The notes beneath the pieces are model-generated. The model had not been told where the DNA came from, searched no databases, and saw only the letters and a program-made list of their open reading frames with translations. A stretch of DNA of 64,000 nucleotides, from assembly GCA_008632985.1 (NCBI GenBank), contig QPGO01000136.1:124001-188000 (forward strand), read 5' to 3'. The position numbers and the translations under genes were made by a program. Of this stretch, positions 1-39,417 are shown piece after piece (position 1 is the stretch's first letter; the number at the start of each line of letters is the position of its first letter). This DNA comes from Psammoneis japonica (Eukaryota).

Positions 1-39
1 TTCCTGATCTGCCCAGGACAACATGATGGTGCTGTTTGC

Positions 40-1227
40 ATGGGATCACTCTCCTTCACGAGGTTGCGCTTCTCCCTCAAGGACATTGCGTGGGCCGCAC
101 TGGATTTCGGCTGTGAAACAAACAATGAAAGCCAGCAGCACTTCCTCGATGGGCCCAAGGAAGTGCAAGCAAAAGAACTCGTCAATCTTGACTGCCATTT
201 GTGCATGTCAGGAGGATGCAGTGCTCTGTCCAATGCTGAATGGATGATCACCCACATTGCCGTCATGAGTGGATCGACTGAGTGTGATCTCATGGCAGCC
301 TCAGCTAATGTGAAGAATGTCAATTCGAACGAAGCAAAGAAAGTGTGCGCTGAGTGTGGAGGGCGAATGCGTCTGGCACTTGATCATTCAAATGATGAGG
401 CGGCAATGATTTCTTGGGCTGATGGCATTGTTGCGGATCTGTCAGAGAGTGCATGTGCTTTGGCAATGATGGAGTCAGAGTCTCGAACATCTTTTGACAG
501 CAAAGACAGATTGCGGACCATGTTCAGGAGAAGCAGTGGGCGACCTCTTCAACTCGTGGATTCACAGCATTTGCTTTCAAAGCTTCGAGACCGCTTGACT
601 TTTTGTGACTTGCAAAAAGCTTGTGGAGTTGCCGAGGCACTGGATTCTCGTACGATGATGGGAGTCCTTTTTGAGGAAATCATGCACAACTGGTTTCAAC
701 GAGTCAAGCCGACCCCGGCATCCAGGGTTTTGCATTCCCCTGGGGGGGAGACAGGAAAAGCTGGTGCCGCAGACCTGTCCAAAGAGCTGGCCTGCTGGAG
801 TCCAAGTGTGCCAAACTTTGCCAATGTTGGTGCTGCGTTTGTGGACAAAGCAACCGTTCTGCATTTTTTTTGTGCCCAGTGTGCCACAAGTGACTCTCAC
901 GAGTTCAACGCCTTGACGTTTGACACGGATTTCATCCTCGAACTGAAAAAGAGCTTCGTCAAAGGATTCCAAGAGATTGTGGTGTGTTTCACAGTTCCAT
1001 CTGGGGTGATCTTTGACGTTGAGGCACATGACGCTTTTGAGTGTGACAACGACTCAACAACCTGTCGGTTTGAGGTTGTTCATTTGAAATTCAGCAATGA
1101 CAACAAAATTGGTGCATTGGCCAGCGCCTTTCCCTTCTTGTCACAGGAAAAATTCTTGGGTTGCAGAGGTGCGCACGCTGCAGGCCGTGATTGTGAATGT
1201 GCCCACAGATCTGATTGCACCAAATGA
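40..1227 (+). pseudogene. Decayed Crinkler(CRN)-like protein, C-terminal part (restriction-endonuclease-like domain); 5' end probably outside the window
   Basis: 395-aa ORF with no Tyr and excess Cys/His. Motifs MGVLFEEIMHNWF and CWSPSVPNFANVGAAFV..LHFFCAQCATSDSHEFN resemble the YWxPxxxNFxxIDA...QxTxxxxH motif of CRN-type REase domains with Y->C changes. Lies in a TpA-depleted block. Confidence 0.45.
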
Positions 1228-1299
1228 ATGTGATGATGAAGAACAGATGGCAGCTGTCCGACGCACTGACAGAAAGGCGATGGAAGGATGCAGGCTGTG

Positions 1300-3250
1300 C
1301 TGGACTGGGGACTGAGTGAGACATGGGACTGTCTTCCAATGCCCTCCCTCGAGATGGAGCCAGTTGATTCACAATGATGTGAAAAAACTTGCAAGATCTT
1401 GCAAACCTTGGAAGAAAGTGCAATGGAGCACATTCCGTCAAGATTCTGAGCTCCTGCCACAAGAACATTGCCATCGTCAGACAAACTCAAGTGACCATCA
1501 CCAAGGTCACTGGAACTGCCTCGCCTGACAACATTCTGGCCATGCTGAACCCAGCTGCTTCCATCAAGTTCGCACACTCGGACAAATGCCTGAGTCTCAA
1601 CCGCCAGCATCTGATCCAATGGCTCCAACAGCTAAATGCAGACCTGTCAGCAGAAAGTTCTATGCTGGCACCATGCCAACTTTCGAAACTCTCTCTGTCC
1701 AGGTCTTGACCGCGCTGCTTCCAACTGTTGTTGTCAAAAGTCAAAAACTTTGACCCATCCAAAACCGTTGGCACCCCAAACGATTCCGACGGCGACTCTA
1801 CGTCCAGTGGAATCAAATGCAATGGATCGACATCAAGGGCAAACTCGCCCTCCAGGTCCTTACCAAGTTGGGTCCATTGGCTTCTAAAAGGGCAAATCCG
1901 AGCATGTCCGGCGTCCAACCTTCCCTGAGGATCGCCGAGGTGGGCAGTCATGGCCATGGCATGTCCGGTGCTAGACAAAGCCACGGCCCACCCAAATTCA
2001 TTGCCAGGTGCTGTGCCATTGACAGGCGAGCCCATGTTCTCCCACTCATCTTCTTCGGGCTCCTTGAGCTCGAAAACTGGGCTTGTCCAGTTTGCTGTGC
2101 AAAGTTCCTTGCACCGACGGCGACCCTGTTGCCATCACCACTCAGGGACATGTGGTGACCAAAGCCGGAGCCTTCATCTTCACGAATTGCCGGACCAAGT
2201 TAATCCCACTGGTCGCCATTCCGCTTGCATGCAATGACGGTTTGGCCTTGGTTTGCCCCCGTTGCAATTGTGCTGCCATCGTGGGATGCCTTGACACATG
2301 CCACAAGTCGACTTCCTTCATCAATGCCTTGGATTGTCTGCATGATGGCCACTTCCGCTGGACCAAGCGGCGTGGGTGTGGGAGATGGAGTTGGCATGTC
2401 GGTTTCTTTCACCGTGCCTTTCGGTGTGGGAGATGGTGTTGGCAAGACTGTGGGGGTTGGTGTTGGTGTGTCAGTTTCTTTCATCGTACCTTTCGGTGTG
2501 GGAGATGATGGTGTTGGTGAGACTGTGTCTTCCTCCAGTGTGATTGATGATGTTGGCGTGGCGGTTGCTTCAACCGTGAGAAAGACAGTGACAGCTGATC
2601 TGCAGATTGGGTGCCAATTGCTGCACCTGCCACTGCCCCAATGGCTGCAATCAGTGCAATGATTCCAGAAGTGACGAACCACCTGCGCCTCCACAATGGA
2701 GTCTTGGCCCTCTGGTCAGTGTTTTTTCTCTCATCTGGGAGTCTGCTCTCCCTGACCAAACCCTCTTCTGCTGTGTCATCTACAGCCTGTGCAGTGACAG
2801 CTCAATGAAGCACATCTTAGACTTCTTGCCCAATTTTGCAGTGAAGCTCTTGGCCAGTTTCATTCGCCAAATCCTCATGTGTGACCGCATGTGCGACTGC
2901 AGTCTGAGGACAATCAGAGTTGGTTGAAAGGTTGTCTCGAGAGGCATCACAGAGATTGGGGCCTGCAATGGCATGAGCACCTGCTTGCGCATTAAATGAT
3001 GCATTTGCTTGCTGCGTTCTTCCATCAACGGATGAGTTGTGCTGGCCACTGACTTGAGCGCCAACCACGGAACTCCGCGGCGCTGGCAGCACGGGCCTCA
3101 GCAGCAGAGTGAGCAATGACGCACTTAAAGAACTTTCATTTTGAGGACCACGTGAGCATGGTGTCAGTCTGCTGGCCTTCTTCTTCTCTGCTTCTTTCAA
3201 AGCTTCTGTGTCGGTCTTGTCTTGTTGGCTTGCTTGACAGCGTGTGCCAC
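1300..3250 (-). pseudogene. Decayed type II membrane protein with FG-GAP/integrin-alpha-like beta-propeller repeats and a Thr/Pro linker
   Basis: Pieces in several frames: N-terminal QAGAHAIAGP, TM helix WFVTSGIIALIAAIGAVAGAAIG (about 2610-2680), TPTPSPTP repeats (2370-2530), and repeats MSLSGDGNRVAVGA, GNEFGWAVALSSTG, WTQLGKDLEGE, WKQRGQDLDRE, LSLSDDGNVLVAGA. Multiple frameshifts, no Tyr. Confidence 0.65.
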
Positions 3251-4688
3251 TCTCACATTTGGCCATGGCACATCTCTCCCTCGAAGGAGGATGCATCATC
3301 ACATTTACCCACACAATGCAATCCCATGCCTCAGCAGTGTCGGAGTTTGTGCTTTTGTTCATGGTGACAACTTCAAAGCAAAGGGCATTGAAATTCTGAG
3401 CAGAGGTGTTCATGTGATCATGAAGCCTTGTGACACAGTTTTTCCCATTGCACTCATGACAAGAGAGAGACCTCCACCTTGCACCAGTGAGACACACAAA
3501 ATTTTTTCTCTTGCTGGGTCTGCCCCGTTTCTGCACACCAACAGCAGCATCAAGCTCAGTCCACTTGCAATGGCTTTGGCAAACAACTTCTTCAGTGCCT
3601 TTTCTGCCTGCTCTTGTGCAATGCTCTCAAGAGGGTTTTGTGTGTGAGGCCAAGACTTTGTTCCTCAAAGCCCTTTTTCTTTGCACCCAGGTAGAGATCT
3701 TCTCTCACTTGTCAGCCAATGCACTCATTGAAGGTGTTTCATGCCCATTCATTTGAGTTTGTGCAAGAACCTTTGTCAAGTTGTCTGCTGGTGCACGCGC
3801 ACTTCTTGCAGAGAAAAGAGAGCTCTTTTCCTCTTCTGCTGGGAGCCTTCAATTTGCTCTCTTGTCTTCTGAGCTGCTTCTTTGCTTTTCTTTTTTTGCT
3901 TGAAATTCTTTGGCTGCGCTGCTGCTGACTGCATCTGAGAATGCTGATGAAGCCAGCAATTTCTGCCACACTGAACGAGACACAAGAGACTGCCTCACAA
4001 CCTTCAAGAGAGTCTTTGCAACATTCATTGTGTTTTGGAAAGGAGGAGGAGCCTGCCCCATTTTTGCTGGAGAGGGTTTCCTCTTCTGCTTGCTCAAAAC
4101 ACTGCTCTCTTGCCACAGGCTTGATGGTCAACAAACATGACAAAAGGCTTGAGAGTGCAAACACCAAATGCCTTTTTTGTGCATGTGGGCTGCATCCATC
4201 CTCTGCTGGTGGACTGTGCAGCATCATGCTGCCATGCCAGCACACAGGTGCCGTGTCTGCACATGAAATTTGCTTTGGTGGGGTGCAAAGCATCAACCAG
4301 GAGGCGGGGGGGTTGTGGTCTTGGCCCCGCCTCTTCTGGCATTGCGCACACAGCAGCCAAGCTCTTTCTTGGCTGACTGGGCACACCACGCTTGGCCGGA
4401 GAGCCAATGCTTTCATCCAAAGAATCTTGATCTTGGAGTTCACGTTTGGCAGGTGTTTTGAGTTGAGGAAGCACTTTGCATCTTTTGAGCTGCACATGGT
4501 TCTTCAAGCTTGCCCCCCTCTTGTCTTGCCGTTGAACACAAAAGCGCGCATGAGCGGCGAGCAACAACAACTGCGTCGCGTGAAGCGCAAAAGCAGTGGA
4601 AGTGTCTTTGTTCAGAACCGCCACTCTTTGGCAGCAGCAGTGGCAGCAGCAGCAGCATGGCATTTGCGACTGCTCATGCTGTCCAGGT

Positions 4689-4867
4689 TGCAACGACAGC
4701 ACACCGTGGTCTGTCCATCGTCAGACCAGAGCCAGAAGGAAGTGACGTAGAGAGTCCAGGAGGCTGACACCATGCCTTGACACCTTTGAACCTGGTGTCA
4801 TGTCACGAGGCTCTCTGTCCACTCACAATTCGGCAACCATCCACATTGACAACATGCCCACGTTGTG
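4689..4867 (+). repeat. 5' LTR (mutated copy)
   Basis: tgcaacgacagc...cccacgttgtg. Aligns with 14258-14447 with 10 substitutions and 4 indels. Confidence 0.95.
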
Positions 4868-4882
4868 TGGAATCCCACCCGG
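4868..4882 (+). promoter_or_regulatory. Putative primer-binding site
   Basis: TGGAATCCCACCCGG directly follows the 5' LTR and starts with TGG (complement of tRNA CCA). Cognate tRNA not identified. Confidence 0.6.
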
Positions 4883-4920
4883 TGGCAGCTGTCGAATCTG
4901 TCAGCTCTGTCTGTTGAGTG

Positions 4921-7900
4921 ATGAGCATGGTGCATGGTTGTGGCGGCCGTGGAGCCGGCAGGGTGAACCGCCCGTCGGATTTGACTTTGGATTTAGCACA
5001 AGAGCATTGGAATGATTGCACTTTCCAGGTCCCAGCAAAGCCGGACAAGTTGTCCTCCTTGAGTGTTCAGTGCCGTGAATGTTGTTTCCAACAGACTCTT
5101 TCCGGCATCTTGAGCAATGCAACAGCCGGGTCTCAGACAAAGCTTGAGATGCTGTTGAGTCACTTCGACTGTGCACATCTTCCCCAAGAAGTGAACGGTG
5201 CGTTAGAGCGTTCACATGACAACACGGCAGGCGTTGACAAGCCTGTTGTTGCCATGGAGGCGCCGGCGGGTGCATTCACACACTCCGACCCGGCAATCCA
5301 GAACGATGTCGGTGAGCGAATCAACACACCGGTTGCGGGGGCAGTGAACATGGCAGCTGTGGTGCATCGTGCGTCATGCTGCTGCACCTTCAAGTTGACG
5401 GTTGACGCATGTGCGGCCGCGCAAGATTTGGATGCGGCCACTCTTGATGAGGTCGCGTTTCCGATCCAACAATTCAACGTGGCAGTCATGATCCTGCAGG
5501 TGGTGATTAACAACCCAGCAAACCCGGATGACAGCCGCAAGGTTCTCCCACCCGGGTTCACTGCCGATGTTGTTCTCAACCCGGTGCCATTCTTGACTGC
5601 ACTCAGGATGTGCCTCGGTGGTGCGGTTCCCACCCTGGGCCAATTAGGAAGTCCAAACAGTGCCTTGCCGGCGAGCTTGGACAGTTGTCATTTCAGGTGC
5701 AGTTTCATGTGCTGCTTCCATGAATGCCGCTTCCGGCTCACGCGGTTCTCACCACGGTCGGGATTTTTGGGGGACTTGGCACGAGACTCATCCTACACTG
5801 CTGCCGCCATTCAGAACCTGAAACAAGCCCAGTTTGATCCGGCCGCTGGAGGTCATGTGGAACTGTCGGCAGAGCAATGCTGCATCAAATCTGCCGATTT
5901 GGTCAGCCTGTGCGACCTTGCGGAACGTTGCCCCATCAATTTGGCTCAAGTTTTTTGGGCCAGCTTAAAAGCGGACATCCGCCAACAAGCCAATTCTCAA
6001 GAACCTCCCCATCATGTCCCTCCTGCTCCGGCCAATGAGACCAACACTCAAGCGGATGCACGCTTGCGAGCGGCATGCACGTCTGCGACCTCTTTCGTGC
6101 GGCAATTGCAACAAATCGAAAATCAAGCGCGTCGAGTCATGCGAGCACCTGGTCGAGGCCCCACGAGGGTGTTGGAAGCACTTCCCACAGATTCAGGTGT
6201 GCCAGAAGACACTGGCTTGCCTCTTCAGGTGCAGCAGGCAGACTGGATGCCGGGCGCGTGGGAATGTGTGGCACAGGACGAAAGCAATTCGTTCGTGCAG
6301 CCTTCGGCCCCCTCGTTCATGCTCGAAGACCCTTCCACTTGTCTCAGCGCGGCTGAAACGTCTCTCCAAAATGCCACTGGGACTGTTTGCCCTCCCATGG
6401 AATGTTGGGGATGTGCAGGTCATCCACGCAACCGCGCACGCAGGTTCGAGCACACATGGAGCAGTTGCCCCTGTCGCTCCAACCCTCAAGCCCAAGCTTT
6501 GGCAAAGAAAGCTTGCACGGCATTCATCGAGGCAAGGAAAAAGCGATTGACCCATGACAGTGGGACGGCGGCCCCACCAGCCTGGTCCAATCCTCATCGG
6601 GCTCCGGCACCTCCAAATCCCCCTGCAGCGGTCATGGTCCCCAGGCCGCCGGTTCCGGCATTTGCAGCGGTGCCGCAGAACCCTGGAGAAACGGCACCCC
6701 AAGAATCTAATTGGGAGGCGCAAGGCTTCCCCTCTGATCAAGCTGCGCAATTGGCATTGGCTGTCTCTTCTCCAGCCACAACAGCAGCAACCTGCAAGGC
6801 GTGTTTCCAGGCACTGTTGAGGCTGAAGCGCCAGAAGACTGCCCAGCATCCAGCCGAGATTGAAACCTTGACGCCAGAGGCCGATCAAGATGACCAGCCA
6901 CCTGTCTGCCACCCGTTCTTCTTCCAACCAAGGGTGTGTCAAACTCTTAAAGTGGCTGTTCGAGTGTCTGATGTCAAACTCAGCACAAGTCATGTCATGC
7001 CGCACACCAGTTTCCCCATCGGTGAAAAAGGGGAGGCGGCATTGACCGTTGTGGTGGATGCATGTGGCGGGCTCAACGCAGGTCGATTGGCTCATCATTG
7101 GAGCATCATGCAGGCCAACCCGCGGTTGATCGAACATTTCGCGTGGATCAAGGACATCCCCAGTTTCGACCCCTTCAGTGTCAGCGGGTTGGAAAAAGAC
7201 TCCACCACGGAGTTCACGGCGGTGACAGTGTGCAAGACGCCATGTCAGCTCAGTGGGCGACGGGTCACCATTTCGCTTGGGTTGGTGGAGACGGCGTCAG
7301 CGAATTCATTGCTGGATCCACCGTTCATCCGGGCGTCTAATTCGGCGCTGTTGTTTGACAGTGACAAACCAGAAATCACGCTGGTGCAAAAGCTTGGCAC
7401 GGCTCTTCAGCTTCTGTGCCAAGCACCATCATGCGCAGACAAAGTCCCGTCAAACCCAGAAGGCGTCCAGGCAACATGCAAGATGACGGCGGACGGCCTT
7501 CAAGCAGTCAATGAGGCAAGGCGCGTAGACTCGCCGGAAGCTCCCACAAGGGTGATTGCGACAAGACGACCGTCTCAACCAATGTCCTTCCGCAACCACT
7601 GCTTCCAGGCTTTGCAAAATGCCATTGATCGAGCAGCCGATGCGGCAGAGACCCTGGCGACTGTAAAGGTGTGCCGCGGCATGGCGGTGTCCTCCGACAT
7701 GACAGGTTTTTTCCAGTTGCCGCGGGATCCGGCGGACGACGAGTTAGATGCAGCACTCGATTCTTCACCATGTCGAGATGCGACCTTGTGGCCGGCATCT
7801 CCGCCTTTGCACTTTGAACCAGCTTGTCATGCGGCCTTTCAGGTGGGTGGCAGTTTAGTTCTGTTTCTCCCCTCCCAGCGCCCTGACCCTGGGCGACACG

Positions 7901-7992
7901 GCTTCTATCCCAACTTGTTAGAGCAACAATCAGGACAGTGTGAGCTCGACAGCCGCAAACGCACTCATGTCCAAGCACACCAGCAAGAATGA
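4921..7992 (+). pseudogene. Gypsy gag plus aspartic protease region (degenerate)
   Basis: About 1020-aa ORF with zinc-knuckle-like CWGCAGH...HTWSSCP and protease-like VVVDACGGLNAG. Only 2 Tyr. Ends at a TGA in the same frame as the following pol ORF (8017), so it was probably once a single polyprotein (CGA->TGA). Confidence 0.75.
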
Positions 7993-8016
7993 CAGCTGCT
8001 CTCCCTGGATCCACCG

Positions 8017-11000
8017 GTGCACCACCTGTCGTCGGCATGCGTGCAAGTGTTGCCGGCATTCCAAAAAGGCCTTTGGGGACAGGCGGAGCCGTGCGCATTT
8101 TTAGTCAACCTGCAATGCAGCGCCGACCAAAGCACAGTTGCTGCCACATGTGCCGCTGCTGCACATGCCACACATCTGGATTCTTCCGATGATTCATTGT
8201 CCACATTTAAAACTGCATCAACTGCATCCATCCATTCCTTTCCTGCCTCCTCCAACAGCAATCAACTGCCACCCAGGTCCATGCATCATGAACTGGTGGA
8301 ACCGGTGGTTCCAGTTCAACCTTCGCCCAATGCGCAATGCACAGTGCGGGCAGAAAAGAAAATCTGGAGACCACGTCTACCATCTCAGTGCGTCGACCCG
8401 GGAGACTGCCCGGATGTTCTGGATGGAATGGAGGTTGTCTTCAAGCAGCACGGGTGCTCTCTGTGCCGCGCCAAGGACCCTTTGCCCCCCAGAACGGATG
8501 TTGTTTTATTTGATCTGCAAAAACATCAGGCCAAACTCAACAAAAATGTCCAATGGCATGAATGCCCAGAAGAACACAAGCCTGAGGTGACGTCTGTCAT
8601 CAAGCAACATTGGGATTGTTTCTGCGAGGAAGGGCTGCGCAAGCATGTCCGCGGATTCTCATGCCATGTTGACACCGGTGCCATCGCCCCGGTGTGCTGC
8701 AAGCCGCCACGATGTGGCCCTCACGAAGCCCAAGTCATGAACAAGCTTGTCCAACATTTGGATGATGATGGACTTGCCAAGGTGGACGACGAAAGCCCTT
8801 GGGGTGCGCTTGTGGTGTTGGCTGCAAAGCCTCATCAAGAGCATGTCCCGTGGCATGAATGCATCTGGCAGTTGTGTGCATCACACCGGAGATTGAATCA
8901 AGTGACGCGGCTGTTCGCATTTCCGGTCCCACGATGCGACGATGCGCACAAGACATCCCTCCACATGCAAAGGTTTTTCTTGCCTTCGATCTTGATTGCG
9001 GGTGTTGGCAAGTCGTGTTGGATGAATTGTCAAGAGCCAAAACGGCTTTCTTTGCGCCCACAGGCAAACGATGTTGGACCGCACTCCCAATGGGGTTCAT
9101 CAATGCACATGCCATCTTTGTGGCCATGTCCTTGGAGCTGTGAAAGATGTGGAACAAAGAAATTGCCAAGCAACACCCTCAACTGCCAGCTCAAGCACAG
9201 GCAGGTGCAATCACAAAACATCGGAACCCAGACCAATGTGGAGCCAATGTCATTGTTGACGATGCATTGATTTGGGCAGTCCACCCCAAGGCCCTGTTGA
9301 CATGCTTTCGGGGGGTCTGTGAAGTCTTGATCTTCCATTGCGTCACTTTAAAACTCAAGAAATGCAAGTTTCTGTGCCCCAGGATTGAGTTCGTCAGCGT
9401 GGATGTCCATCCCCTTGGTGACTCTCCTGCCCTTTCCAAACAGGATGCGTTCCGCAACCTCCCCTGCCCGCGGTCTTGGAGTGATTTGCGCATTTTAATT
9501 GGAGTGCATGGCTTTCATCAAAGCTGGATTTACAACTTTGAAGCAAGGATGCTGCCATTCTGCAAGCTCCAGCTCGCGGCCCCCAAGCCAGGCTCGCTCT
9601 CGCTCCCCCAAGAACAGAGCCGCTTCAAGTCGTTGTGGTTGCCAGAACATCAAGCATTGTTCGAAACACTGCAAAAGGACATGGTGTCCGATCTCATGCT
9701 GGCATGCCCTGATCATGCACGTCGGTTCTACGTGAAAACTGACTGGTTGAAGGAGGCACTGGGCACAGTCCTGTGCCAGGCGGACGAGAAGGACGTGTTG
9801 GTGTTTGATGCGGAAATGGCAGAAATCGAAGGCGGCCCGTGTTTCTTCGACTTACATTGCAAAGGCATTCACCTCCACCCCATTCAGTTCCCATCACGCA
9901 CCACCACAGATTCGGAAAAGAAGTGTCACTCCTTTGTGGGTGAGATGTCCATCCCGCAATGGGTGTTTCCAAAATGGCAGAAATGTTTGGCAGGACGAGA
10001 GTTCACTTTGCTTGCAGATGTGAACAGCATGCGGGAGTTTGTGGATCATACAGCCAACCCACCCAATGGCCAAATGCAGCGATGGCTCCAAGAGTTGATG
10101 TCATGCTCCTTTGTGTGTGAACACAGGCTGAGTGAAATGGCAACAGAATGCAACATGCTCACGCAATGTGACACCGACACAGCGTCATGGCAAGAAAAGC
10201 TCCAGGACCCATCTCCAACTCCACAAAATGTCAGCAAGGTCACCGATGTCCAAAATGACCGGAAAGGGTCATCCACTGGGGCAGAAATGTGTCTCCCATC
10301 TGTCCACGTGATGGCGGCACCACCACCCACTTTTCGGACAGGACCGGTGATGCAGGTCAGACGCAAACCTTCTTGGCAATTTGCCTCCACTCTGGCACGG
10401 ATGGCAACTCCAACCCGTGCGGTGCTTTGTCTTGGACCGGTGTTGTTTCTGCTGCAAGAGGCATGTTCGCAGGCCGCAGCTCGGCCAGATGCACAACTGA
10501 CCATTGATCAAAGCCTCAATGCAAAAGCGCACCCGGGGTTGCAGCTCATCGATGGCCCACAGTTCTTTGATGCCGTGATTCATTCATCCACCCATTTCAA
10601 ATGCATTGATTCGTTCTTCGCCCTGTGCAGAATTTTGGACCCGCAGCCAACTGCGAAACTCAACAGCACGGCTCCACACGAATGGTGCGATGAAATGACA
10701 GGGCACGTAAAAGTCCTGCAGGCGAGATTGTTCCTAAGAGCGGTGGTGCTCTTTGTCCCGGCGGTGCTGCCGAATCTTGCAAAACAAATTCGCCAAAGCC
10801 TGCCCGTCAATGGCATTAATTGGGCGATCCGGTCCTTTTGTTGTGCCAACACTAAACATGGGGGCGCCATCAGACCGATCACACGGTCATTGTCATGGTG
10901 ACCTCGGCCACAATTGGGCAACTTCATCCAGGTGACAGCACCGAGGATCCAGCGCCAATTTGTCAATCCTCAAGCCCTCCCCAGCAGCGTGTTCTGTTGC

Positions 11001-13760
11001 TGTGGAACACGAATTCTCTGCCCGGGTGGGCCGATTCATCAAGTCTCATTCGGCAACTAGACCACTGGATGGACATCCGGCCTTTTCCTCGGCATTTCCA
11101 GCTCCAAGCACAGTGTGCCCATGAAAAGAAGAGCCTTTTTATCAAGCCCTGTTCGCAATGTGGGATGAACAAGAAGCGCAGCATGTCGCCCCGTCCAGGT
11201 TCATGAGCTCCTGCGGTTGCTGGGCTTCTCAGAAGAGTCGATTGGGCCATTGCTGCTTTTGCCGGAGCAAATTCTCTTGCAAGGATTGCAGAGCACACCG
11301 GCAATCGCAGCAATTGCCCATGTGGCAGTGGCATTGTTTCATGCGGAGGCACCGTCACAACACACAGTTCCGGTCGACCCGGTGCACCCCGACACCGCCC
11401 GGTCTCCCCCGCGGGTGCCCTCGTCAGCGGCCGTTCCGTTCGACACAGTGGCAACCTTGCCTCTCCCGTTGGACAAACAATGGCGAGAAGCAACTGCAGC
11501 CGACCATGATCTAGCAGCTCTCCTGAAGGCAGCAAGGTCCAAGACAACACTGTCCAAACACAACTTTTTAGACAAGGCACACCATGCGGCCTGCTCCAAT
11601 GACCAACTGGAGGCAGACCAAGGCTTGGCATGCTGCTTTGAGTGCTCCAGGTCAGCTTGGGCACGGCAGCTTAGAGCATGAGTGGTGCGGCCCTCCCTGC
11701 GATGAGTGATCATCGCAGCGTGCCATGTGCACCCTTTTGCCGGTCACAGTGGAATCACCAGGACGCTCTGCCGCTTGCAAACCCGATTCTGGTGGCAGGG
11801 TGTGTTGCGCGACTTACACGAAGGCACATTCGCTGTCATGTGATGAACCGTGGTCGGTGGTCTTCTTAGATTTTTGGTCTCCCGGCCAAATGCCATCAAC
11901 GACAGGAGATGTCAAAGTCCTGACATGCTTGGATGGTGTGGCAAGCTTTGCCCTCGCCAATTTTTTCCAAGAGATTATTTCGGCGGAAGCTGCAGCACAT
12001 GCAGTGGCAGCCAAGTTCTTTGGTGTTGCAGGGTTGCCACGCCTCATCACAGTGGATGCAGATTCGCTCTTCATGGGTGTGTTTGTCCAGCTCTTCGAGA
12101 TCATTCGGGCCCCAGTGTTGCCGGCATCTCGCGAAAATCACCGAGCGGCACGAAATGAGCGGTTCCACCGACATTCAAATGAGGTGGCATGCATCAACAC
12201 AGCAGACATGCCATCCATGATGTTGTGGAAGCAAGCTGCACATTTTGCCTTGCATGCCTGGAACGCCTCACCGATTGACACCACTGACCTGCCCAGATCA
12301 TCAGTGGCTGTGGGACGTGAATTCCCATTTCCTCTCAACACAACGGCGCGGCCGGTGCATGACTCGGCATCCATGCCAAACCAAGCATTGGATCATTTTG
12401 AATCGATGGCACCACTCCTCTTCAAACAGAGGACACTTCTCAACATTTTAAATGAAGAACGACGGGCGAGACACATCGAATTGTGCAATGAGGGCATCAA
12501 ACAGCGGAGCTTCGCCCCAGGGGACATTGTCATCATCCGGAAGCAAGTCAAATCGGATCGAGCACGTGGCATTTCGGCTGAGCTGCTGTTTCGAGCACGA
12601 GGCCCACACACAGAGACACAGAGGAGCAGGTCGTGGATGACCCGGATGGCGAATCTGACGACGAGCTTCCCAGCGACAATGAAACCACTCCCCCATTGCT
12701 CTCTCGTGCAGTGCACCCATCAACTGCTGGGTTCTTCCGCAAACTGCACAAGCTGATGGCCGATTTGATGACCAAGGTGTTCTTCGTAGCATGTCAACCT
12801 CAAGAAGCCACGCTGCCGGTCCTGCGGATCGCGCAGGTGTGTTGGCCAGAATCCAATCCGCACCACGCGACGAGTCATGGTGTGTGTGCCATTCGGTGGT
12901 GGTGCCAGCACTTCCAAGATGCACACACCAAAGCCATGGTGGACAGTCGATTCTGGCCGAATGCGGTCAAGCAACGGGCAGACGAACCGACCGCCAGAGC
13001 ATGTGCCGGTCGACGCGTTCCAACCCCAGGTGGGACTCCGTGTGACATTGGGCCCACAGAATTCTGCATGCGAGCTCCGCAGTGCAAGAATTTAATTGAT
13101 GGATGTGTTTGTCTTCAACATCAAATAAATGGCCAAGTTTGTGGTGCAATTGTGCCTCTTGCCACTCGACGTTTTTGCAAATTCGCCTGCCCCACGCGAT
13201 TCTTAAGACATTGTAGAATCGCGCTGTAACAAAAAATGTCAAAAGTTGTTGGACGGATTGCTCAACAAGTGCACCGTAAAATGACACAAAATGTCGAAAA
13301 AATCACGTAGAAATCTACGTGCGCGACATGCGACGAGATTCAAAAAACTGTCGATGTCACAGTTCAGCAGTGCGAGGTCCCACCCAGACCTGGAGCGCGT
13401 CGGTCAACCCCAAAAAGGTGCCACGTGTGATTGCTGATGACAGGTTGACCATCAAGTGGCCAACTGTCACCTTCCCAATTGCAGAGCATTTTGCAGTCGG
13501 CCCGTTCGACTTCTCCGTGGTCAGAGCAACTCACGGTGAAAACAACAAGTCGACCAAGGAACCACACCACATCGCGGAGCCGCGCTGGGCACAACCAGAG
13601 AACAAGGCTCCTCTGTTCAACCTCGACATCTTGGACACACATCGAGTGCCTTCAGACCAGCTCAATTCTCCAGTGCCACAATTTGTGTCAACTTGCCCCC
13701 AGTGCTCAAGACATTCGGTGCAGTCTGAGGCAATTCCATGTCATGCGTTGTCGAGCTGAC
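8017..13760 (+). pseudogene. Gypsy pol (RT, RNase H, extra domain, integrase, C-terminal domain), broken by frameshifts, stops and a MITE
   Basis: RT: SPWGALVVLAAKP, HRRLNQVT, FPVPRCDDA, AFDLDCGCWQV, LPMGFINA, VIVDDALIW. RNase H: RRFYVKTDW, HSFVGE, FTLLADVNS. Integrase: ACHVHPFAGHSG..RFWW, PWSVVFLDFWSPG, LPRLITVDADS, NERFHR. C-terminal: RFWP..VPVNPKKV..VGPFDF. Confidence 0.9.
13012..13401. mobile_element. 390-bp non-autonomous TIR element (MITE) nested in the pol C-terminal region
   Basis: Imperfect TIRs GACGCGTTCCA..GGTGGGAC..TGTGACAT and ATGTCACA..GTCCCACC..TGGAGCGCGTC. 4-bp TSD GGTC (13008-13011 and 13402-13405). Removing it restores the frame PEHVPVNPKKVPRVI. Confidence 0.8.
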
Positions 13761-14242
13761 CTGCATCTTTGTGTCACTTTCCCCACGCATGCATGGGCAA
13801 CTTGCACCCAGCACACAGGGAGCAACTGTCAGTGACAGGCCAATCCTGGCATGCTCGCTCCTCCGGGGTTGCTGTTTTGGGTGCGTCGAGGTCAAGACAT
13901 CGTGACGGCACGAACGGCTCAGCACGGATGCACCGGTTTGATTCCCCCGCCATTGCCGTACGAACTGCAAAGGCCCGAACGATGCAACAGAGGAAAGGAG
14001 CTTTGTCATGACCCTCGGATCGCACGTGGGCTCCCGGGTGAGTCCCGGGCCGCACCAGGTCGGACGAGGAGCGTGTTGGCCTCTGTGCGTTTGAAATCCA
14101 CTCCCAAAGATGAGTCAGTCGTGGGTCCAGTCGTGGGTGCAATTCCATGGAGGAGGACATCCCGGCGCCCATCGCCGCCCCTCTCATAACATCCATCGGA
14201 TATTCGTGCTTTTCTCGACCCCGAGGAGCAAGGCTGTCTTAT

Positions 14243-14257
14243 AAGAAAAAGGAGGGA
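14243..14257 (+). promoter_or_regulatory. Polypurine tract of the LTR element
   Basis: AAGAAAAAGGAGGGA immediately upstream of the 3' LTR start TGTAACG. Confidence 0.85.
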
Positions 14258-14447
14258 TGTAACGACAGCACACCGTGGTCTGTCCATCGTCAGACCGGAG
14301 CGAGACGGAAGTGACGTAGGGCCCTAGCTATAGAGTCCAGGAGGCTGACAACCGTGCCTTGACACCTTCGAACCTGCGGTGTCATGTCACGAGGCTATCC
14401 ACTCACAATTCGGCAACCATCCACATTGACAACATACCCACGTTATA
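14258..14447 (+). repeat. 3' LTR (largely unmutated copy)
   Basis: tgtaacgacagc...cccacgttata. Near-inverted termini TGTAACG/CGTTATA. Retains TpA and CpG. Confidence 0.95.
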
Positions 14448-14545
14448 AGGTTGCAGAGTAGTCTGAAGCAGGGATCTCAAGCCCTCAGAAACAACAGAGT
14501 GACAGATTGACTTTGGGGTCACACAAACCACTGTACTGTAGAACC

Positions 14546-35005: not shown

Positions 35006-35739
35006 GCAGAAAAATATGCGAAATTTGTGTGACGAGCAATGCGTAGGAGCAATCAATCTTCAGCTAGCTAGATTAGTGTAGCTCGTAGAAGTAGCTAAAC
35101 GCACGATTGGAGCACTTCTCGGAGGATCAGGGGTCAGGGGTTGATGCGTTGCTTTTATCATCGTCCTTCGTCGCTCGCCGCTCATGTCTCGTGTCTCGTC
35201 GGAGGCCGTTGCGCGTGTTGCGCGCGGTCAGCGGCGGTTGGAGTGGGCAACGCAGAGGCCACACGCGAAAGAGAAACAACATGTCAGAGTTGTGTGGCCG
35301 GAGGTGTGTTCCCAAGCATTTTTCAAACTGGCTCTAAGAGGGCCCAACTAGCTACAGTAGAAGTAGCACGGCAAGTGGATTTTGATTAACAGCGTTTGAA
35401 ACACAGTTTCTGGATGCATGCAGACAGTGCAGAGAGGGCCAGCTCTGAAGGTGCGAGATGATGGCGCGCACCAACACTGCTGCAATGTTTCTTTTGGCAT
35501 GTGCCCTTGGCACAGAGCAAGATGGCACCCCCAAGGGAAGCAAGCCAGTGAAACAATTTGAGTGCTGTTGTGTTGTTCTGGCTGAGGCAACAAAAAGCTT
35601 CAAAGAGACTCACTCAATCAGCCAGAAACAACAACCGCGTCCCCCAAATCTTGTGCTCTCACACACCGCACAGTTCTGGAATGAACAGCTTTCTCTTTCT
35701 GGGCACACAAAACTCATTTGAGTTGGTCTTGCAGAGCAG

Positions 35740-36200
35740 TTGCCTCCATTTTGTGAGCAGTGCCAAAAGTTGTCATGATGGACCCATGTGTGGCCGATGT
35801 TTTTCCAGCAAAAAAAATGATTTCCTGCTGTCCCAGCAGCCAATCTTTGTGGGCAGGGCCAAAATGTCTTTCCCCCCAGCCAGTGCTTCAAAAGGAGTGG
35901 GACATGCAGGCAAACATGAGGTGCTGCCATCTGGAAAAATCAAATGCTTCTTTGAAGGTTCTGGCATGTTTTCTCCAAACCTGATTGCTTTTTAATTTCT
36001 TCAGTGTGGTGGTCACCTCCCTCACCCAAGAGAAAAGAGCAAACTTGCCCCCACCTCCAATCCAGAGATCATTGAAAACATGGCCCACTTGCTGGATCTC
36101 ATCTTTCCCCCACAAGGCTGCCAGCTTGTCATGGTCACTTTGTTGAAATGAGCTTTGTCCCAGCACAATGTGCGCCCATTCACAACACCAAAGCCAGCTG
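35740..36200 (-). pseudogene. Decayed partial paralog of the neighbouring flavin amine oxidase gene (C-terminal part)
   Basis: Aligns with about 39730-40250, e.g. tttgtcccagcacaatgtgcgcccattcacaacaccaaagcc versus tttgtcccagtagaatatgcacttgttcagaacgccaaagcc. The translation keeps AGFGVVN and FNDLWIGGGGKFALFSWV. Confidence 0.85.
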
Positions 36201-39200
36201 TGTTGAGCCACAGCAATCAACAGCACATTGCATCTTGTGAGCTGACACATGGGAGAATCAACATGTGAGAGTGTGATGGGCCAATTGTTGACTTTTTTGG
36301 CTGAAAAGCAATGGGCAAACAATTGAGTGTTTCAGCTGTTTTTCTGCAATCAAATGATTTCACAAAGCACAGCAAGGCATGGTGGGTGGAACAACACTTC
36401 TCTGCAGATTCCCTTTTCCATCATTGCAAGGCCACTTTTGCAGGATTGGGAGGAAGCACACTCCAAGCAGTGCATCTTCCCTGCTTGGCAGTGATTTGTT
36501 GGTGCCGTGATGCTGAACTAAAAAGCACTGGTCCATCCCAGACATTCGAGCTGCAGAAGTGTTTGGGAGAGCGCAAATCCACCAGTGATGTGGTGTCAAA
36601 GTCTTTGCAAGCCATTCTTTTGTTGGGCAGTGCCAGCCAATGCAACTGGCACATTGCTGTTGCAGGGTTGAATCAACAGTGCAGTCATCTTGACATCATG
36701 GAAAACAAGAGTGTGGCTTGAACAGAGTGATGCAAGAGAAGAAAGCTGCTTTCTAAAGCTGCAGCACATTGATCACATTGTTGTGATCTCAAGACAACAG
36801 GTGGATTTGTTGTGAATGTCTTGGTGCTTGCCAGAGAGATGTCAACAAATGAAAAGATTTCATTGAAGCTGCACAATGTCAGCCAACAAGCACTGTCATG
36901 ATGGAGATGCAAAATTGCTGACAAAATTTGCCAATGCACTTGTGGCTGTGTGGTGCATCAGAGTGCGCATTCCAGTGATCGAGACCTGCTTTCTCCTGGT
37001 GATTTTTTCCCAATCATTGTGTGAACAATTGACCTGTGAAACCTTGCCAGTTGTGCACCTGGCAACAATTTTTCAAATGTCAATGACAAAAATCTTTTTC
37101 CTGTGAAGCCCCGCTGTTCACTGTCAGAAGAAAACATTTCGCTGTGAAACAGCAACACACGGTTTCCCTGTGAGAACGCCTCCTGTGCCCTCTTTTCCTG
37201 CAGAACTTGACAATTGGCAGTGAATGGATTTTTCCTGTGTTTGGCAGAGATTCCAGGAGTTGAGTGCAATTTACACAGCGCATTTGACTCAATGTTTGTC
37301 AATGAACAAACAATTTCAGCTGTGCTGGGTCATGAAGTTTGTCAAGGAACACTGCTGCACTGCTTTGCTGCTGGCATTTCTTCCACCCACTGTGCCATGC
37401 TTTGGACCATTGCCAGATCTGCATTGCTTCTTGATCATCCTCATCCTTGTGCCCATCACTGTCTTCTTTTTCCTCTTCTTTGTCGTTGTTCTGCCACTCC
37501 ATTTTCTCTTCCTCGTCTTCCTTGTCATTGCTGGAAAGTTCTGTTGTTGCTTGTGTTCTTGTTCCTGATTCTGATGGTTCACTCACACTCTTCTCACAGA
37601 TTCCCTTGGCATTGTCTTCTGTCAACACAACTGCAGTGAACAAGCATTGTGTCAGCCGTGCCACAATCAACACCTTCTTGTTGTTGCTTCCTGCAGCGTT
37701 CACCTCTCAATGCATTCTTCCATGTTGTCTGGGCAACGGTGTGTTCCTCTTCATGTTGATGCATTGAAGATGCACGTTTTTGCCCAGGCTTTCGACAATT
37801 CTGCCCTCACCCACAAATGCGAGTCAAGTGCCTTCAGGCAGGTGGTGCCCTTTCTGCTGTGCTCTTGTTGGGCACATGTTTTCACTGCAAAAATGCTGAC
37901 ATCTCTGGCACCCTGCTTGCCACAGTGTGTTGTGCATGGGCAGCAGGTGACATGGCACTTTGGCATGCCCACATTGACCCCAAACACCATCTGTCTCTTG
38001 GGCTGCTGGCAATTTAATGAGATGCTGCACTGCCTTGTTGGTCTTCAGGAAGAGCCAGACATGCGACACTTTGCACACAACATGCTTCCTCACAGCAACT
38101 TTTGGCTCAACTCTGATGTCTTGTTTGCTCCATCTAACCCTGAGGTTGACTGGCTCATCCTTGCCACAGCTCCCCAGCCCCCTCTCCATTCCCAATGTTG
38201 TCAAGAGCTTTTGTGCACTGTGCACATGAGTGGCATGGCAGCCATGTCACACCACCTTGGGAATGGGAGAGATGGTTGGCACTGACACTGCAGTGAACCT
38301 CCACCACTCCAAATGTCAGTCTGCTTTTCTTGCTGCTGCTGCACCAGAGGATTGCTGCAAGAGGATGAACGTGCAAAGTGCTGATGGCACAGCCACTGGC
38401 ATCACATGAAGATGACAAGGGAGATTTCTCATGACCCATTGTGTGTGAGCCATCTTTCCCCCAAATCAAATGTGAGTGCACCCACTGAGAACAAGTGGCT
38501 GTTTTGTGTTTCATCAGCTGCTTTTGTTTGTCATCATGATGAAAAGTCAGTGGCAAGCCTGAGAGACAGCCTGATGACTCCCACCTCTCATCCTGCCCCA
38601 ACTGGCCATGCTGCGCCAGCTTGGGAGTGGCAGATGGTCAGCACCAGTGCTGGCAAACCTCTCCCAGCCCAGTTGTTGCCCTCCTGCTGCTGCGTCAGAT
38701 CACTGCAAAAGGATGAATGGGAATCAAAATGATGGCAGTCTCATCAGGCAAATGTCACACTCCAGATTCAGGCCAGAGGCAAATTCTTCTGCCTGAAAGA
38801 GAGAATGAGAACAAGGCTCATTTTCAGCTCTCTTTTTGCACCATTGTTGCCCTTTCTGCCACCAGTGCTGGGATTTGCCAGCACTCCCTTTGTGCAAATT
38901 GGAGCTGAGAACAGAAAACAAAAAATCTGGCTTCACCACAAGCCAGGCAGGAGCACGTGTGCACAGTCAAAATTCTGCATGGTGGCTGTGTGAGAGAAAG
39001 ATTGTTGGCAACACAACCTCTGCTTGGTCAGTGTGTGAAAAACTTGTTCCTCTCTCCCCAACATGTTTTTCTCTGCACATGCACAGAGAGCACCTGTTTG
39101 CATGTTCTTGCAACAAGTGAGAAAAAAGATTTTTTTAACAAAAGTCTCTTGTGGAAGAAAAAAGCTTGCAACACAACAACAGCCACCATGGTGATGAGTT

Positions 39201-39368
39201 CTTAAGTTTGCACAAGTTTGTTCAGTGCGTGTGTTTGTGTGTTGCACTTCTCCCCCAAATGATGCTCAATTGTTGCTGAGTTCGCAGGTGCCCCCGCTTG
39301 GTGCACAGTGCTCTCATTCCCTGCCTGGCAGGGGCTGCACTGCATCAAGAAGAGAGCTGAAAAGACAG

Positions 39369-39369
<1 letters not shown>

Positions 39370-39417
<48 letters not shown>
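39370..39417. repeat. (TG)24 microsatellite
   Basis: Perfect TG run. Confidence 0.95.

Follow-up and report, generated by a model that had tools for sequence, protein, structure and literature searches.

The bias of mutation from G:C to A:T is near-universal. So far a single account exists of a process that runs the other way at TpA steps, a 2026 preprint on one chlorarachniophyte, Bigelowiella natans (Mettrop et al., bioRxiv 10.64898/2026.01.13.699255). It describes a mutation-accumulation experiment in which two integrated viral regions gained 231 mutations; 230 of these were A to G or T to C, and those 230 lay on TpA. Hypermutation ran at about 1000 times background, and the hypermutable regions showed almost no G:C to A:T change. 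It also describes 124 TpA-poor, CA/TG-rich clusters in the genome and an enrichment of reverse transcriptase and DDE domains among TpA-depleted coding sequences (bioRxiv 10.64898/2026.01.13.699255).

Other systems share single features with such a process. Fungal RIP makes TpA from CpA, requires duplicated sequence and mutates both copies (PMC2621366, available portion). The editing of LTR retrotransposons and retroviruses by APOBEC enzymes is deaminase-driven hypermutation used as host defence (PMC4866542, available portion); it acts on minus-strand cDNA prior to integration, turning C to U and giving strand-specific plus-strand G to A that is alike in the two LTRs. ADAR and ADAT enzymes cause a net A to G with T or U favoured 5' of the target, which makes them candidate chemistry, and amphioxus ADAT2 is described as acting on DNA (PMC10354150, available portion). 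In diatoms, a mutation-accumulation study found that CG mutates more readily than any other dinucleotide, and it cites a figure of about 6% for the methylated share of the genome; the portion of its text at hand reports no TpA effect and does not contain the word "transposable" (PMC6604790). We found no report in the literature of a TpA-erasing signature in diatoms.

The window, the 64,000-nucleotide stretch analysed here, contains an element that by its sequence features is a dead Ty3/gypsy-type LTR retrotransposon of 9.76 kb (Table 1). It lies in nuclear DNA of a diatom-like alga, the host genes having a diatom-like look. Its two LTRs are flanked on both sides by AGGT, and an independent repeat search recovered them as direct repeats at 4686-4864 and 14255-14444; blastn aligned them at 85.6% over 194 columns including gaps. 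LTRs as a rule run 5'-TG...CA-3'. Both copies here begin with TG, and the 5' copy ends in TG and the 3' copy in TA, neither being the canonical CA. Pfam matches to RNase H and tblastn of homologues onto 8383-12609 gave the pol order reverse transcriptase, RNase H, integrase. The pol region is frame-shifted near 8952-9003 (homologue P0001 matches 8383-9003 and 8952-11834 by tblastn) and near 11827-11834, and has an in-frame stop. Pfam gave no match to the decayed reverse transcriptase and integrase of the element, domains that lie at residues 160-326 (RVT_1) and 1140-1198 (Integrase_H2C2) of P0001, and in the reverse transcriptase the motif DAGYWQ now reads DCGCWQ and VSYRRLNQ reads ASHRRLNQ.

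Table 1. Coordinates of features in the window (o/e, observed/expected).
Feature	Position	Strand	Remarks
TpA desert 1	1..14186	.	Covers left flank, 5' LTR and retrotransposon interior; extends past the window's left end
Left target-site duplication AGGT	4685..4688	+	Same 4 bases recur at 14448-14451
5' LTR, converted copy	4689..4867	+	179 bp, TGCAAC...GTTGTG
Candidate primer-binding site	4868..4885	+	TGG directly 3' of the 5' LTR; by position only
Reverse-transcriptase region	8383..9400	+	tblastn of homologue P0001; 3' limit approximate
RNase H domain of pol	9636..10100	+	Pfam RT_RNaseH_2 1.3e-14, RT_RNaseH 2e-11
Integrase, zinc-binding part and core	11690..12609	+	P0001 residues 1208-1468 onto 11827-12609, 49% identity (tblastn); 5' limit approximate
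Nested MITE-like insert, very high-copy family	13027..13387	.	TIRs GGTGGGAC... / ...GTCCCACC; CCAG flanks
C-terminal part of pol, past MITE-like insert	13400..13684	+	P0001 residues 1748-1839, E = 7.8e-9 (tblastn)
Spared patch	14187..14447	.	261 bp: 71 bp including the polypurine tract, and the whole 3' LTR
Polypurine tract AAGAAAAAGGAGGGA	14243-14257		Clear; directly before the 3' LTR
3' LTR, unconverted copy	14258..14447	+	190 bp, TGTAAC...GTTATA
Right target-site duplication AGGT	14448..14451	+
TpA desert 2	35388..39535	.	0-2 TpA per full 500-bp bin; CpG o/e 0.04-0.24
Decayed amine-oxidase gene copy (part), inside desert 2	35785..36208	-	tblastn E = 1.3e-12 and 1.8e-6
Intact neighbouring amine-oxidase gene	39595-40739	-	Pfam Amino_oxidase match
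TpA desert 3	41839..43365	.
TpA desert 4	54698..56883	.	Converted copies of 19155-19392 (reverse strand) and 53934-54065

Pairwise alignment of the LTRs yielded 10 substitutions and 4 indels (12, 1, 2 and 4 bp). The sequence-only reading had announced in its title that all 10 substitutions fall on TpA or CpG, and the alignment gave the same result: each lies on a TpA or CpG of the 3' LTR, and the roughly 142 remaining aligned positions carry no substitution (95% upper bound 2.1%). The four indels went unmentioned in that title. Five of the six alignable TpA sites of the 3' LTR are altered in the 5' LTR (TGTAA to TGCAA, CTAT to CTGT, CATAC to CATGC, and two sites in TTATA to TTGTG), and CGTAG is retained. 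Among the CpG sites, 5 of 12 alignable ones are substituted, one more is deleted in the 2-bp gap and 7 of 13 are retained; three of the changes are transitions (CCGG to CCAG, CCGTG to CCATG, TTCGA to TTTGA) and two are transversions (GCGAG to GCCAG, GACGG to GAAGG). The 3' LTR holds 9 TpA (o/e 0.93) and 13 CpG (o/e 0.95), and the 5' LTR 1 TpA (o/e 0.11) and 7 CpG (o/e 0.54). The chance that all 10 substitutions would land within the 36 of 178 positions belonging to TpA or CpG is 1.1e-7, and that at least 5 of 10 would land on the 12 TpA positions is 2.6e-4. The derived states lie 10 of 10 on one LTR, an outcome with probability 0.002 if either LTR were equally likely to change.

The pair had also been read as giving the direction of change, but a comparison of two sequences is symmetric and cannot polarise a change. 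The 3' LTR could instead have acquired TpA by RIP-like C-to-T change at CpA/TpG, the 5' copy being ancestral at the five sites. Besides the symmetry, this reading can point to the TpA o/e of the 3' LTR (0.93), which exceeds the background of about 0.5-0.6, and to a public run (X1, the only run found to contain the locus; contigs built from 31-letter words, depth about 54, up to 315 kb), in which, among the differences listed, LTR-like contigs show none from the 5' copy at 4856, 4865 or 4867, and no A at any of these three positions. Two to three of these short contigs are unlike both LTRs at 4852 and 4866, and they may carry 5'-type alleles through parallel conversion or otherwise. A family consensus is an unsafe test of direction, as other copies would be converted in parallel. 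The comparison with other genomic copies that the earlier reading had proposed as a check found none at a likeness of at least 80% over 5835-12807 in this run, so that the element is single-copy there by that measure, which speaks against a RIP-like origin. An unconverted outgroup for the five LTR TpA sites was not found, and two metagenome pattern scans returned nothing. All 13 CpG of the 3' LTR are free of C-to-T change, and the contiguous interior has lost TpA, as its conserved tyrosine codons record. With these observations against it, we regard a RIP-like gain as highly improbable.

Direction was read from the coding region, onto which tblastn placed 33 long homologues; Pfam found RVT_1, RNase H and Integrase_H2C2 in 6 of 6 homologues scanned. 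None of eight conserved pol Tyr codons is kept, four now being TGY and four CAY, and control residues are largely intact (Phe 23/27, Trp 13/14, His 10/11, Asp 24/28). Of 30 conserved Arg positions, 16 are still CGN, 4 are AGR, 7 are now Gln, Cys or His and 3 are other. Decay of Tyr codons (8/8) therefore exceeds that of CGN Arg codons (7/23, now CAN or TGN; Fisher p = 0.0008). An independent MAFFT alignment of 22 homologues showed Tyr to Cys or His in 4 of 5 conserved columns, and Tyr makes up 0.3% of a 585-aa ORF of the element versus a median of 2.76% among 150 homologues. From the Tyr and Arg codons it follows that TpA was lost, that the loss came after the element was last functional, and that it was faster than the loss of CpG. 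A TpA-poor composition that was selected or foreign from the outset would fit the fact that TpA is under-represented in most genomes, with a background here of about 0.5-0.6, but it would not destroy invariant tyrosines of catalytic domains in an element that is also frame-shifted and interrupted by a stop; the LTRs of a single insertion differ, and a host-gene copy is converted when its parent gene is not. Its probability is negligible.

The loss is regional. Four TpA deserts with abrupt edges occur in the window, with TpA o/e of 0.03-0.1 and CA/TG of 1.5-1.8, and CpG has decayed strongly there as well (o/e 0.04-0.8). Fungal RIP would leave the opposite, TpA up and CpA/TpG down. Outside the element, TpA o/e is about 0.47 over the whole window and mostly 0.4-0.8 in normal bins. 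Most 500-bp bins of desert 1 hold 0-6 TpA, and the bin 13001-13500, which includes the MITE-like insert, has 8; background bins hold 8-35. CA and TG reach o/e 1.57-1.63 and 1.52-1.62 in this desert. TpA o/e is 0.06 in the left flank (CpG o/e 0.47), 0.10 over 4868-13026 and 0.03 over 13388-14186. Stop triplets in desert 1 number 85 TAA+TAG versus 572 TGA, and in the background 1116 versus 1386. Deserts 2-4 contain no recognisable retroelement domain, and none of their 60 ORFs matches Pfam (0/22 in desert 2). The TpA sites that survive show a tetranucleotide bias, with TTAA spared.

Converted and unconverted copies also occur as pairs within the window. Across four such pairs, the 27 TpA of the unconverted copy correspond to 14 TG, 6 CA, 1 TA and 6 other dinucleotides, and 10 of its 47 CpG persist in the converted copy, where 29 others read CA or TG. 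One aligned DNA pair is a fragment of an amine-oxidase gene, in which both aligned Tyr are replaced (KYLI to KHLI, IFYWDK to TLCWDK), and its unconverted parent. The conversion has regional limits with sharp edges, acts on both strands, and acts on a host-derived fragment as well as on a transposon. Editing before integration, by ADAR-like A-to-I change on the element RNA or by error-prone reverse transcription, has in its favour that ADAR-type enzymes prefer U 5' of the edited A, as the accessible preprint text notes (bioRxiv 10.64898/2026.01.13.699255). It predicts, however, the same changes in both LTRs, and the LTRs differ; products come from both strands (4 TGY and 4 CAY in the Tyr codons, 14 TG and 6 CA in the pairs); the left flank, the three other deserts and the host gene fragment share the signature; and one edge falls inside the element, near 14186. 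The changes are therefore not sense-only, alike between LTRs or limited to the unit, as in ADAR hyperediting, and we consider an origin before integration exceedingly improbable. The three conclusions of the sequence-only reading (loss rather than gain of TpA, timing after integration, and a pace of TpA conversion that on average exceeds CpG decay) survive on evidence other than the two LTRs, which alone do not polarise. Direction comes from the Tyr and Arg codons set against protein outgroups, from the in-window pairs, and from the regional desert, inside which the 5' LTR lies and the 3' LTR does not.

The sequence-only reading had not given the cause of the asymmetry of the pair: the 3' LTR sits in a 261-bp spared patch, and all 10 LTR changes are for that reason on the 5' copy. 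The patch holds 13 TpA versus 9.4 expected at background frequency. To its right, 14448-15000 is again low in TpA (o/e 0.26; 9 versus 19.9 expected, p = 0.005) and has a CpG o/e of 0.50. After the conversion, a younger copy that had escaped it could have replaced the patch through ectopic gene conversion or recombination, in which case the LTR pair would compare two copies and not one copy before and after. Its small size, its end exactly at the element end and the converted-looking DNA on both sides (TpA o/e 0.03 and 0.26) are what such an event would leave. No donor is visible, however; depth in the public run is 70.6 over 14276-14642 versus a baseline of 54-57. At about 142 ordinary sites the LTRs are identical, and both AGGT flanks are still in place. 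The patch is explained equally well as the footprint of a promoter or bound factor belonging to the gene that begins near 14500, which has zf-MYND and weak ankyrin matches. We consider overwriting unlikely, and favour a patch that was spared.

The public-run contigs match both LTR states over the listed pieces 4000-4721, 4826-13048, 14267-14427 and 14406-15000, which skip 4722-4825. The run is possibly the sample of the window's own assembly and hence may lack independence. One contig of 8224 bases spans 4826-13048 with 19 differences, and 16 of the 18 differences listed are at CpG, with none at the 39 remaining interior TpA; this contrast (16/452 CpG versus 0/39 TpA) is not significant by itself (p = 0.63). 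The deserts might also be a base-calling artefact, if a long-read platform misreads bases that are modified in silenced DNA, for example at TpA and CpG; they coincide with CpG loss, as expected of modified chromatin, and the platforms of the assembly and of the run are not on record. Yet the contigs show the desert too, differing from the window 19 times over 8.2 kb, which would presumably take accurate reads, the CpG differences between window and contig run in both directions, like alleles, and conversions are a mixture of TG and CA across sites with fixed states. We therefore think an artefact very unlikely.

The MITE-like insert bears on the pace of change. The alignment of pol homologues halts at 12609 and picks up at 13400, across the insert, whose summed contig depth in the run is 9e4-1.6e5 versus 54.5 nearby. 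It has kept 8 TpA (o/e 0.31) with a CpG o/e of 1.10, and among the matches listed it differs from the family majority at five CpG and one TpA. That TpA conversion is faster than CpG decay holds as an average since insertion and is not clock-like.

Conversion of TpA and decay of CpG across the region after insertion, with the 3' LTR spared, is the best explanation and in our judgement a likely one. The 5' LTR, together with the interior as far as about 14186, would have undergone two region-confined processes. One is a fast conversion of A:T to G:C, restricted to TpA steps and giving TpG or CpA according to the strand hit; the other is a slower, ordinary decay of CpG to TpG/CpA, as for cytosine-methylated transposons. 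The last 261 bp having been spared, the 3' LTR would preserve the state at insertion, and the 5' LTR would show the outcome. Inosine pairs like G. Enzymatic adenine deamination in DNA at 5'-TA-3' is the leading idea for the chemistry, following what was proposed for B. natans, and a thymine modification that mispairs with G may be an alternative. Targeting was probably toward silenced, methylated chromatin, with an active or protein-bound state probably keeping the activity out of the 3' LTR patch, and the activity was probably episodic, not steady-rate.

Set beside the accessible account of B. natans, the locus shows the same conversion of TpA to TpG or CpA by strand, in bounded regions and at a rate far above background. 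The A:T to G:C change falls on TpA (Tyr codons 8/8, pairs 20/27, LTR 5/6), and the fast regions are bounded (four deserts; LTR TpA 5/6 versus 0 of about 142). In both, what lasts is TpA-poor, CA/TG-rich clusters with mostly unannotatable genes, the targets are single-copy, and activity is seemingly intermittent. The host here, however, is diatom-like (a stramenopile) and not a chlorarachniophyte; the targets are an LTR retrotransposon, unannotatable islands and a host gene fragment, in place of giant-virus and virophage inserts; depletion is near saturation (o/e 0.03-0.1 versus 0.45 in the B. natans giant-virus region); and the process is inferred from standing sequence, whereas mutations were seen de novo in B. 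natans. TTAA sparing has no mention in the available B. natans text. G:C to A:T change is not nearly absent here (7 of 23 CGN Arg codons lost), and the strong CpG decay, absent from the B. natans regions as described, means that the two cases may not share a cause. Deamination of 5-methylcytosine accounts for the CpG class (three LTR transitions, CGN Arg 7/23, 16 of 18 contig differences listed) but cannot yield A:T to G:C at TpA. The pattern resembles RIP in being defence-like and regional, with dinucleotide-specific transitions that inactivate mobile DNA, but TpA is removed, the element is single-copy in the public run, and one member of each pair is changed. In contrast to APOBEC editing, the change is A:T to G:C, post-integration and on both strands, and ADAR or ADAT editing of RNA fails to explain the LTR asymmetry or the both-strand products.

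For annotation, LTR-divergence dating would make elements of this kind look far older than they are, long spurious ORFs arise on both strands as TAA and TAG stops are lost, and domain models fail on the decayed proteins, as when Pfam missed the reverse transcriptase and integrase. The LTR pair offers a clean calibration within one element, with 0 of about 142 ordinary sites changed versus 5 of 6 TpA, and the spared patch, the sharp edges and the surviving TTAA are handles toward the targeting signal and the enzyme. Regional A:T to G:C change at one dinucleotide, perhaps at 100-1000 times background, opposes the near-universal mutation bias. A saturated footprint in a diatom-like genome suggests that the process reaches beyond one alga, and its targets extend beyond integrated viruses to ordinary retrotransposons and a duplicated host gene fragment. 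We see an even prospect of a DNA-editing defence, guided by chromatin, in diatoms and perhaps across the stramenopile-alveolate-rhizarian assemblage, one that erases TpA from silenced DNA while ordinary sites diverge by less than about 2%. Such a defence would be distinct from the decay of methylated cytosine yet overlaid on it, would have a tetranucleotide preference in which ATAT-type sites are erased and TTAA spared, would act in bursts and be excludable from a patch of about 260 bp, and would be the mirror image of fungal RIP.

Dinucleotide composition shows that the odd feature of this locus is a region and not the element itself. Over the LTR retrotransposon at 4689-14447, the observed/expected ratio (o/e) is 0.13 for TpA, 1.55 for CpA and 1.51 for TpG, and outside the element TpA o/e is 0.06 across the 4.7 kb on its left side and 0.47 on its right. 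Counts in 500-bp bins delimit four TpA-poor, CA/TG-rich deserts (see table), with 0-6 TpA in most desert bins vs 8-35 elsewhere in the window, and CpG o/e within the deserts is also low (0.04-0.9). On both strands of 1-14186, TAA and TAG stops together number 85 against 572 TGA (background, 1116 against 1386). Because TAA and TAG have been lost and TGA is left as almost the sole stop, long spurious ORFs arise on both desert strands: 38 desert ORFs of at least 100 amino acids lie in 11 kb, and their Tyr codons are almost absent. Pfam returned no families for 60 ORFs taken from deserts 2-4 and from the flank left of the element. In DNA of normal composition, self-blast found short tandem duplications at 17305-17816, 28885-29151, 51164-51457 and 62668-62916, each of two units of about 110-257 bp with 77-89% identity.

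Features of the window discussed in the text
Feature	Position	Description	Basis
Desert 1	1 to about 14186	abrupt edge	500-bp bins
Desert 2	35388-39535	abrupt edges	500-bp bins
Desert 3	41839-43365	abrupt edges	500-bp bins
Desert 4	54698-56883	abrupt edges	500-bp bins
AGGT	4685-4688 and 14448-14451	outer side of each LTR	
5' LTR	4689-4867	179 bp, TGCAAC...GTTGTG	sequence reading and pairwise alignment
TGG		immediately 3' of the 5' LTR	
Purine tract		AAGAAAAAGGAGGGA, immediately 5' of the 3' LTR	
3' LTR	14258-14447	190 bp, TGTAAC...GTTATA	sequence reading and pairwise alignment
Insert in pol gap	13027-13387	361 bp, inverted ends, CCAG flanks	
Partial amine-oxidase gene copy	35785-36208	decayed, in desert 2, same strand as parent gene	tblastn

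The two LTRs were recovered by a repeat finder as three collinear blocks (4686-4864 vs 14255-14444), and self-blast gave 85.6% identity over 194 columns counting gaps. The sequence-only reading had tallied changes at 5 of the 6 alignable TpA sites of the 3' copy, each reading TpG or CpA in its 5' counterpart, and among 13 CpG had counted 3 changed to CA/TG, 2 transverted, 1 in a gap and 7 kept; pairwise alignment reproduced both tallies exactly and, as that reading had also stated, contained no substitution at any other dinucleotide. It had omitted four indels, of 12, 1, 2 and 4 bp. The observation on the LTR pair is thus confirmed, and chance is a very poor explanation of where the substitutions lie: all 10 would land within TpA or CpG (36 of 178 positions) with probability 1.1e-7, and at least 5 within TpA (12 positions) with probability 2.6e-4. 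Canonical LTRs terminate in CA at the 3' end; those of this element end in TA or TG. One contig of the public sequencing run X1 carries an extra TAGGGCCC at 14316 in the 3' LTR, adjoining the 12-bp segment missing from the 5' LTR, and small duplications seem to be favoured at this spot.

All ten changes lie on one LTR because desert 1 holds the 5' LTR (TpA o/e 0.11, CpG o/e 0.54) and not the 3' LTR (0.93 and 0.95); were either LTR equally likely to change, the probability of this distribution would be 0.002. The spared stretch, 261 bp at 14187-14447, is a patch and not merely the exterior of the desert, since converted-looking DNA lies on both sides of it. In the 553 bp to its right (14448-15000), CpG o/e is 0.50 and TpA o/e is 0.26, with 9 TpA vs 19.9 expected (p = 0.005). 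The 261 bp of the patch may have been shielded, for instance if the gene beginning near 14500 has its start region there, or an unconverted copy may have replaced their sequence. The patch and its right flank (14187-15000) overlap the beginning of a gene that carries a zf-MYND domain and a weak ankyrin match.

Pfam recognised RNase H alone in the element (9636-10100), and a search of nine element ORFs at E up to 10 added nothing except one weak DUF match. A search without profiles against 1.84 billion representatives returned 4047 relatives of the 585-aa ORF at E <= 1e-3, 46 of which reached 1e-30, and all six of the long relatives that were scanned contain RVT_1, RT_RNaseH and Integrase_H2C2 in that order. 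The best relative maps by tblastn to 8383-9003, 8952-11834, 11827-12609 and 13400-13684, which implies two frame shifts and a gap. The domain order and this disrupted map show it to be a dead LTR retrotransposon of Ty3/gypsy type, 9.76 kb long. The gap in pol holds a MITE-like insert from a very large family, which comprises thousands of related contigs in run X1, with a summed contig depth of 9e4-1.6e5 for insert-matching contigs vs 54.5 around the insert. Rfam gave no matches over the whole window, and a tandem-repeat finder detected nothing of relevance near the insert. Tyr makes up a median of 2.76% of the residues in the 150 best relatives of the pol fragment. One of them, a public representative of 231 aa (P0142), has no Tyr, 4.8% His and 6.9% Cys, and may be another hypermutated copy, from a public assembly.

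Two sequences cannot polarise a change, and we therefore sought its direction in protein outgroups, which cover the element interior, contiguous with the 5' LTR in the same desert. A codon counted as conserved if 8 or more of the 33 long homologues aligned there and 60% or more of them agreed. None of the 8 conserved Tyr codons was kept, 4 being now TGY Cys and 4 CAY His, vs 23 of 27 Phe, 13 of 14 Trp, 10 of 11 His and 24 of 28 Asp. Conserved Arg codons (n = 30) are still CGN in 16 cases, AGR in 4, Gln, Cys or His in 7 (CGN to CAN/TGN) and other in 3. The reverse transcriptase motif, DAGYWQ in the best relative, reads DCGCWQ in the element, and VSYRRLNQ reads ASHRRLNQ; in a separate MAFFT alignment of 22 relatives, Cys or His occupies 4 of 5 conserved Tyr columns. 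Loss was complete at Tyr codons (8/8) vs 7/23 at CGN Arg (Fisher p = 0.0008). From these counts it follows that TpA was lost, that it was lost after the last selection on the pol protein, and that the loss was more complete than that of CpG. The sequence-only reading had concluded that TpA was lost and not gained, that the change came after integration and that TpA conversion outpaces CpG decay; it was right on all three, yet for reasons outside the LTR pair.

Pairs of converted and unconverted copies within the window, namely three desert stretches against copies in normal DNA plus the LTR pair, agree with TpA loss in the desert copy. The 27 TpA of the normal copies appear in the desert copies as 14 TG, 6 CA, 1 TA and 6 other, and of 47 CpG, 10 are kept and 29 are CA/TG. 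One pair consists of the amine-oxidase fragment in desert 2 and its parent gene about 4 kb away (39595-40739), which is intact by Pfam and unconverted; both Tyr of the aligned parts have become His and Cys in the fragment (tblastn). This pair is polarised by function, the normal copy being part of an intact gene. Because the fragment is converted, the process is not limited to retroelements, and its conversion likewise excludes RNA editing fixed by reverse transcription. For the five LTR TpA sites themselves, no unconverted outgroup was found. Two pattern scans of metagenome contigs with the conserved LTR cores, degenerate at CpG, gave no matches, and contigs of runs X1-X3 at 80% likeness yielded no second copy over 5835-12807. 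At least 2-3 short LTR-like X1 contigs near 4852-4866 have G at 4852 and C at 4866 and, among the matches listed, do not differ from the window at 4856, 4865 or 4867; such copies would be uninformative if converted in parallel.

Run X1, which may be the very sample assembled into the window and whose platform is not on record, contains 91% of the element's sampled words. One X1 contig of 8224 bases spans 4826-13048 with 19 differences and 3 gaps, and others covering 4000-4721, 13398-14290, 14267-14427 and 14406-15000 show 0-3 differences. From X1 contigs of up to 315 kb, 31-letter words and a depth of about 54, we infer that the reads are accurate. Among the 18 differences listed over 4826-13048, 16 fall at CpG of either version, in both directions, the remaining 2 form one TG/CA swap (6869-6870), and none falls at an ordinary site. 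This pattern resembles CpG decay between alleles of a methylated element and not miscalls, and it fits an element that is heavily CpG-mutable and present as two alleles.

Surviving TpA were counted in 1-14186, 35501-39500, 42001-43000 and 54501-56500 (n = 79) and compared with 1479 background TpA. TTAA accounts for 19 of the desert survivors vs 45 of the background and CTAA/TTAG for 24 vs 94; ATAN/NTAT accounts for 8 vs 694 (p < 1e-9 for each). ATAT-type sites seem to be the preferred targets and TTAA seems to be spared, with a bias in regeneration as an alternative source of the skew. Counts for a strand bias in the product (TG vs CA) were small and of mixed orientation, and no claim is drawn from them. 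The process is not clock-like, because the nested insert keeps 8 TpA and the X1 contig matches the window at all 39 TpA remaining in the interior. Relative to its family majority in depth, among the matches listed, the insert has lost 5 CpG and 1 TpA (13193) and has one transversion. This tempo fits bursts, as in Bigelowiella natans, or the exhaustion of susceptible sites.

The change postdates insertion, is confined to a sharp-edged region, acts on both strands and turns A:T into G:C specifically at TpA. Its mean rate since the element inserted far exceeds that of ordinary substitution, with 5 of 6 TpA changed in the LTR pair vs none of about 142 ordinary sites (upper bound 2.1%), and it also exceeds that of CpG decay. 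The chemistry is probably enzymatic, and adenine deamination at 5'-TA-3' would be its simplest reading; alternatively, a thymine modification could mispair with G and be repaired toward C:G. Targeting probably operates through the silenced, cytosine-methylated state that would also drive CpG decay.

A similar footprint is described in a preprint on B. natans mutation-accumulation lines (bioRxiv 10.64898/2026.01.13.699255). Two integrated viral regions received 231 of the 302 nuclear mutations in those lines, and 230 of the 231 changed A to G, or T to C, on TpA, giving TpG/CpA. The rate there was about 6e-7 per site per generation, ~1000x that of the rest of the genome, and hypermutation occurred in some lines only. 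The B. natans genome has 124 TpA-poor, CA/TG-rich clusters, with 81% of their proteins unannotated, and its TpA-depleted coding sequences are enriched in reverse-transcriptase and DDE domains; an ADAT2-like enzyme deaminating DNA adenine is the authors' unproven proposal (bioRxiv 10.64898/2026.01.13.699255). The window carries the same footprint at saturation, whereas in B. natans the mutations were caught as they arose. Because CpG decay accompanies TpA loss in the window and not in B. natans, the mechanism may not be a shared one. In Phaeodactylum mutation accumulation, CG is the most mutable dinucleotide and the bias is G:C to A:T, with no TpA effect in the portion of the report available (PMC6604790). 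Among the papers listed by literature searches, titles and abstracts contained no report of this TpA-loss signature in diatoms, and the B. natans preprint was the sole relevant work.

Genes are densely packed and have few interruptions in the normal parts of the window, and encode a cullin, a cytochrome-b5 front-end desaturase, a fructose bisphosphatase, a class 3 lipase and others. Diatoms (Nitzschia, Seminavis, Pseudo-nitzschia and Fragilaria) supply all the best named relatives of the cullin, at 73-75% identity, with unnamed ones up to 78%. From these relatives the host is judged to be a diatom, probably a pennate one, and not Bigelowiella. The window is a second example, in another lineage and on other targets, of a type of hypermutation known so far from one preprint. 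Handles for finding the enzyme are offered by the patch that was spared, the sharp desert edges, the surviving TTAA sites and the nested insert.
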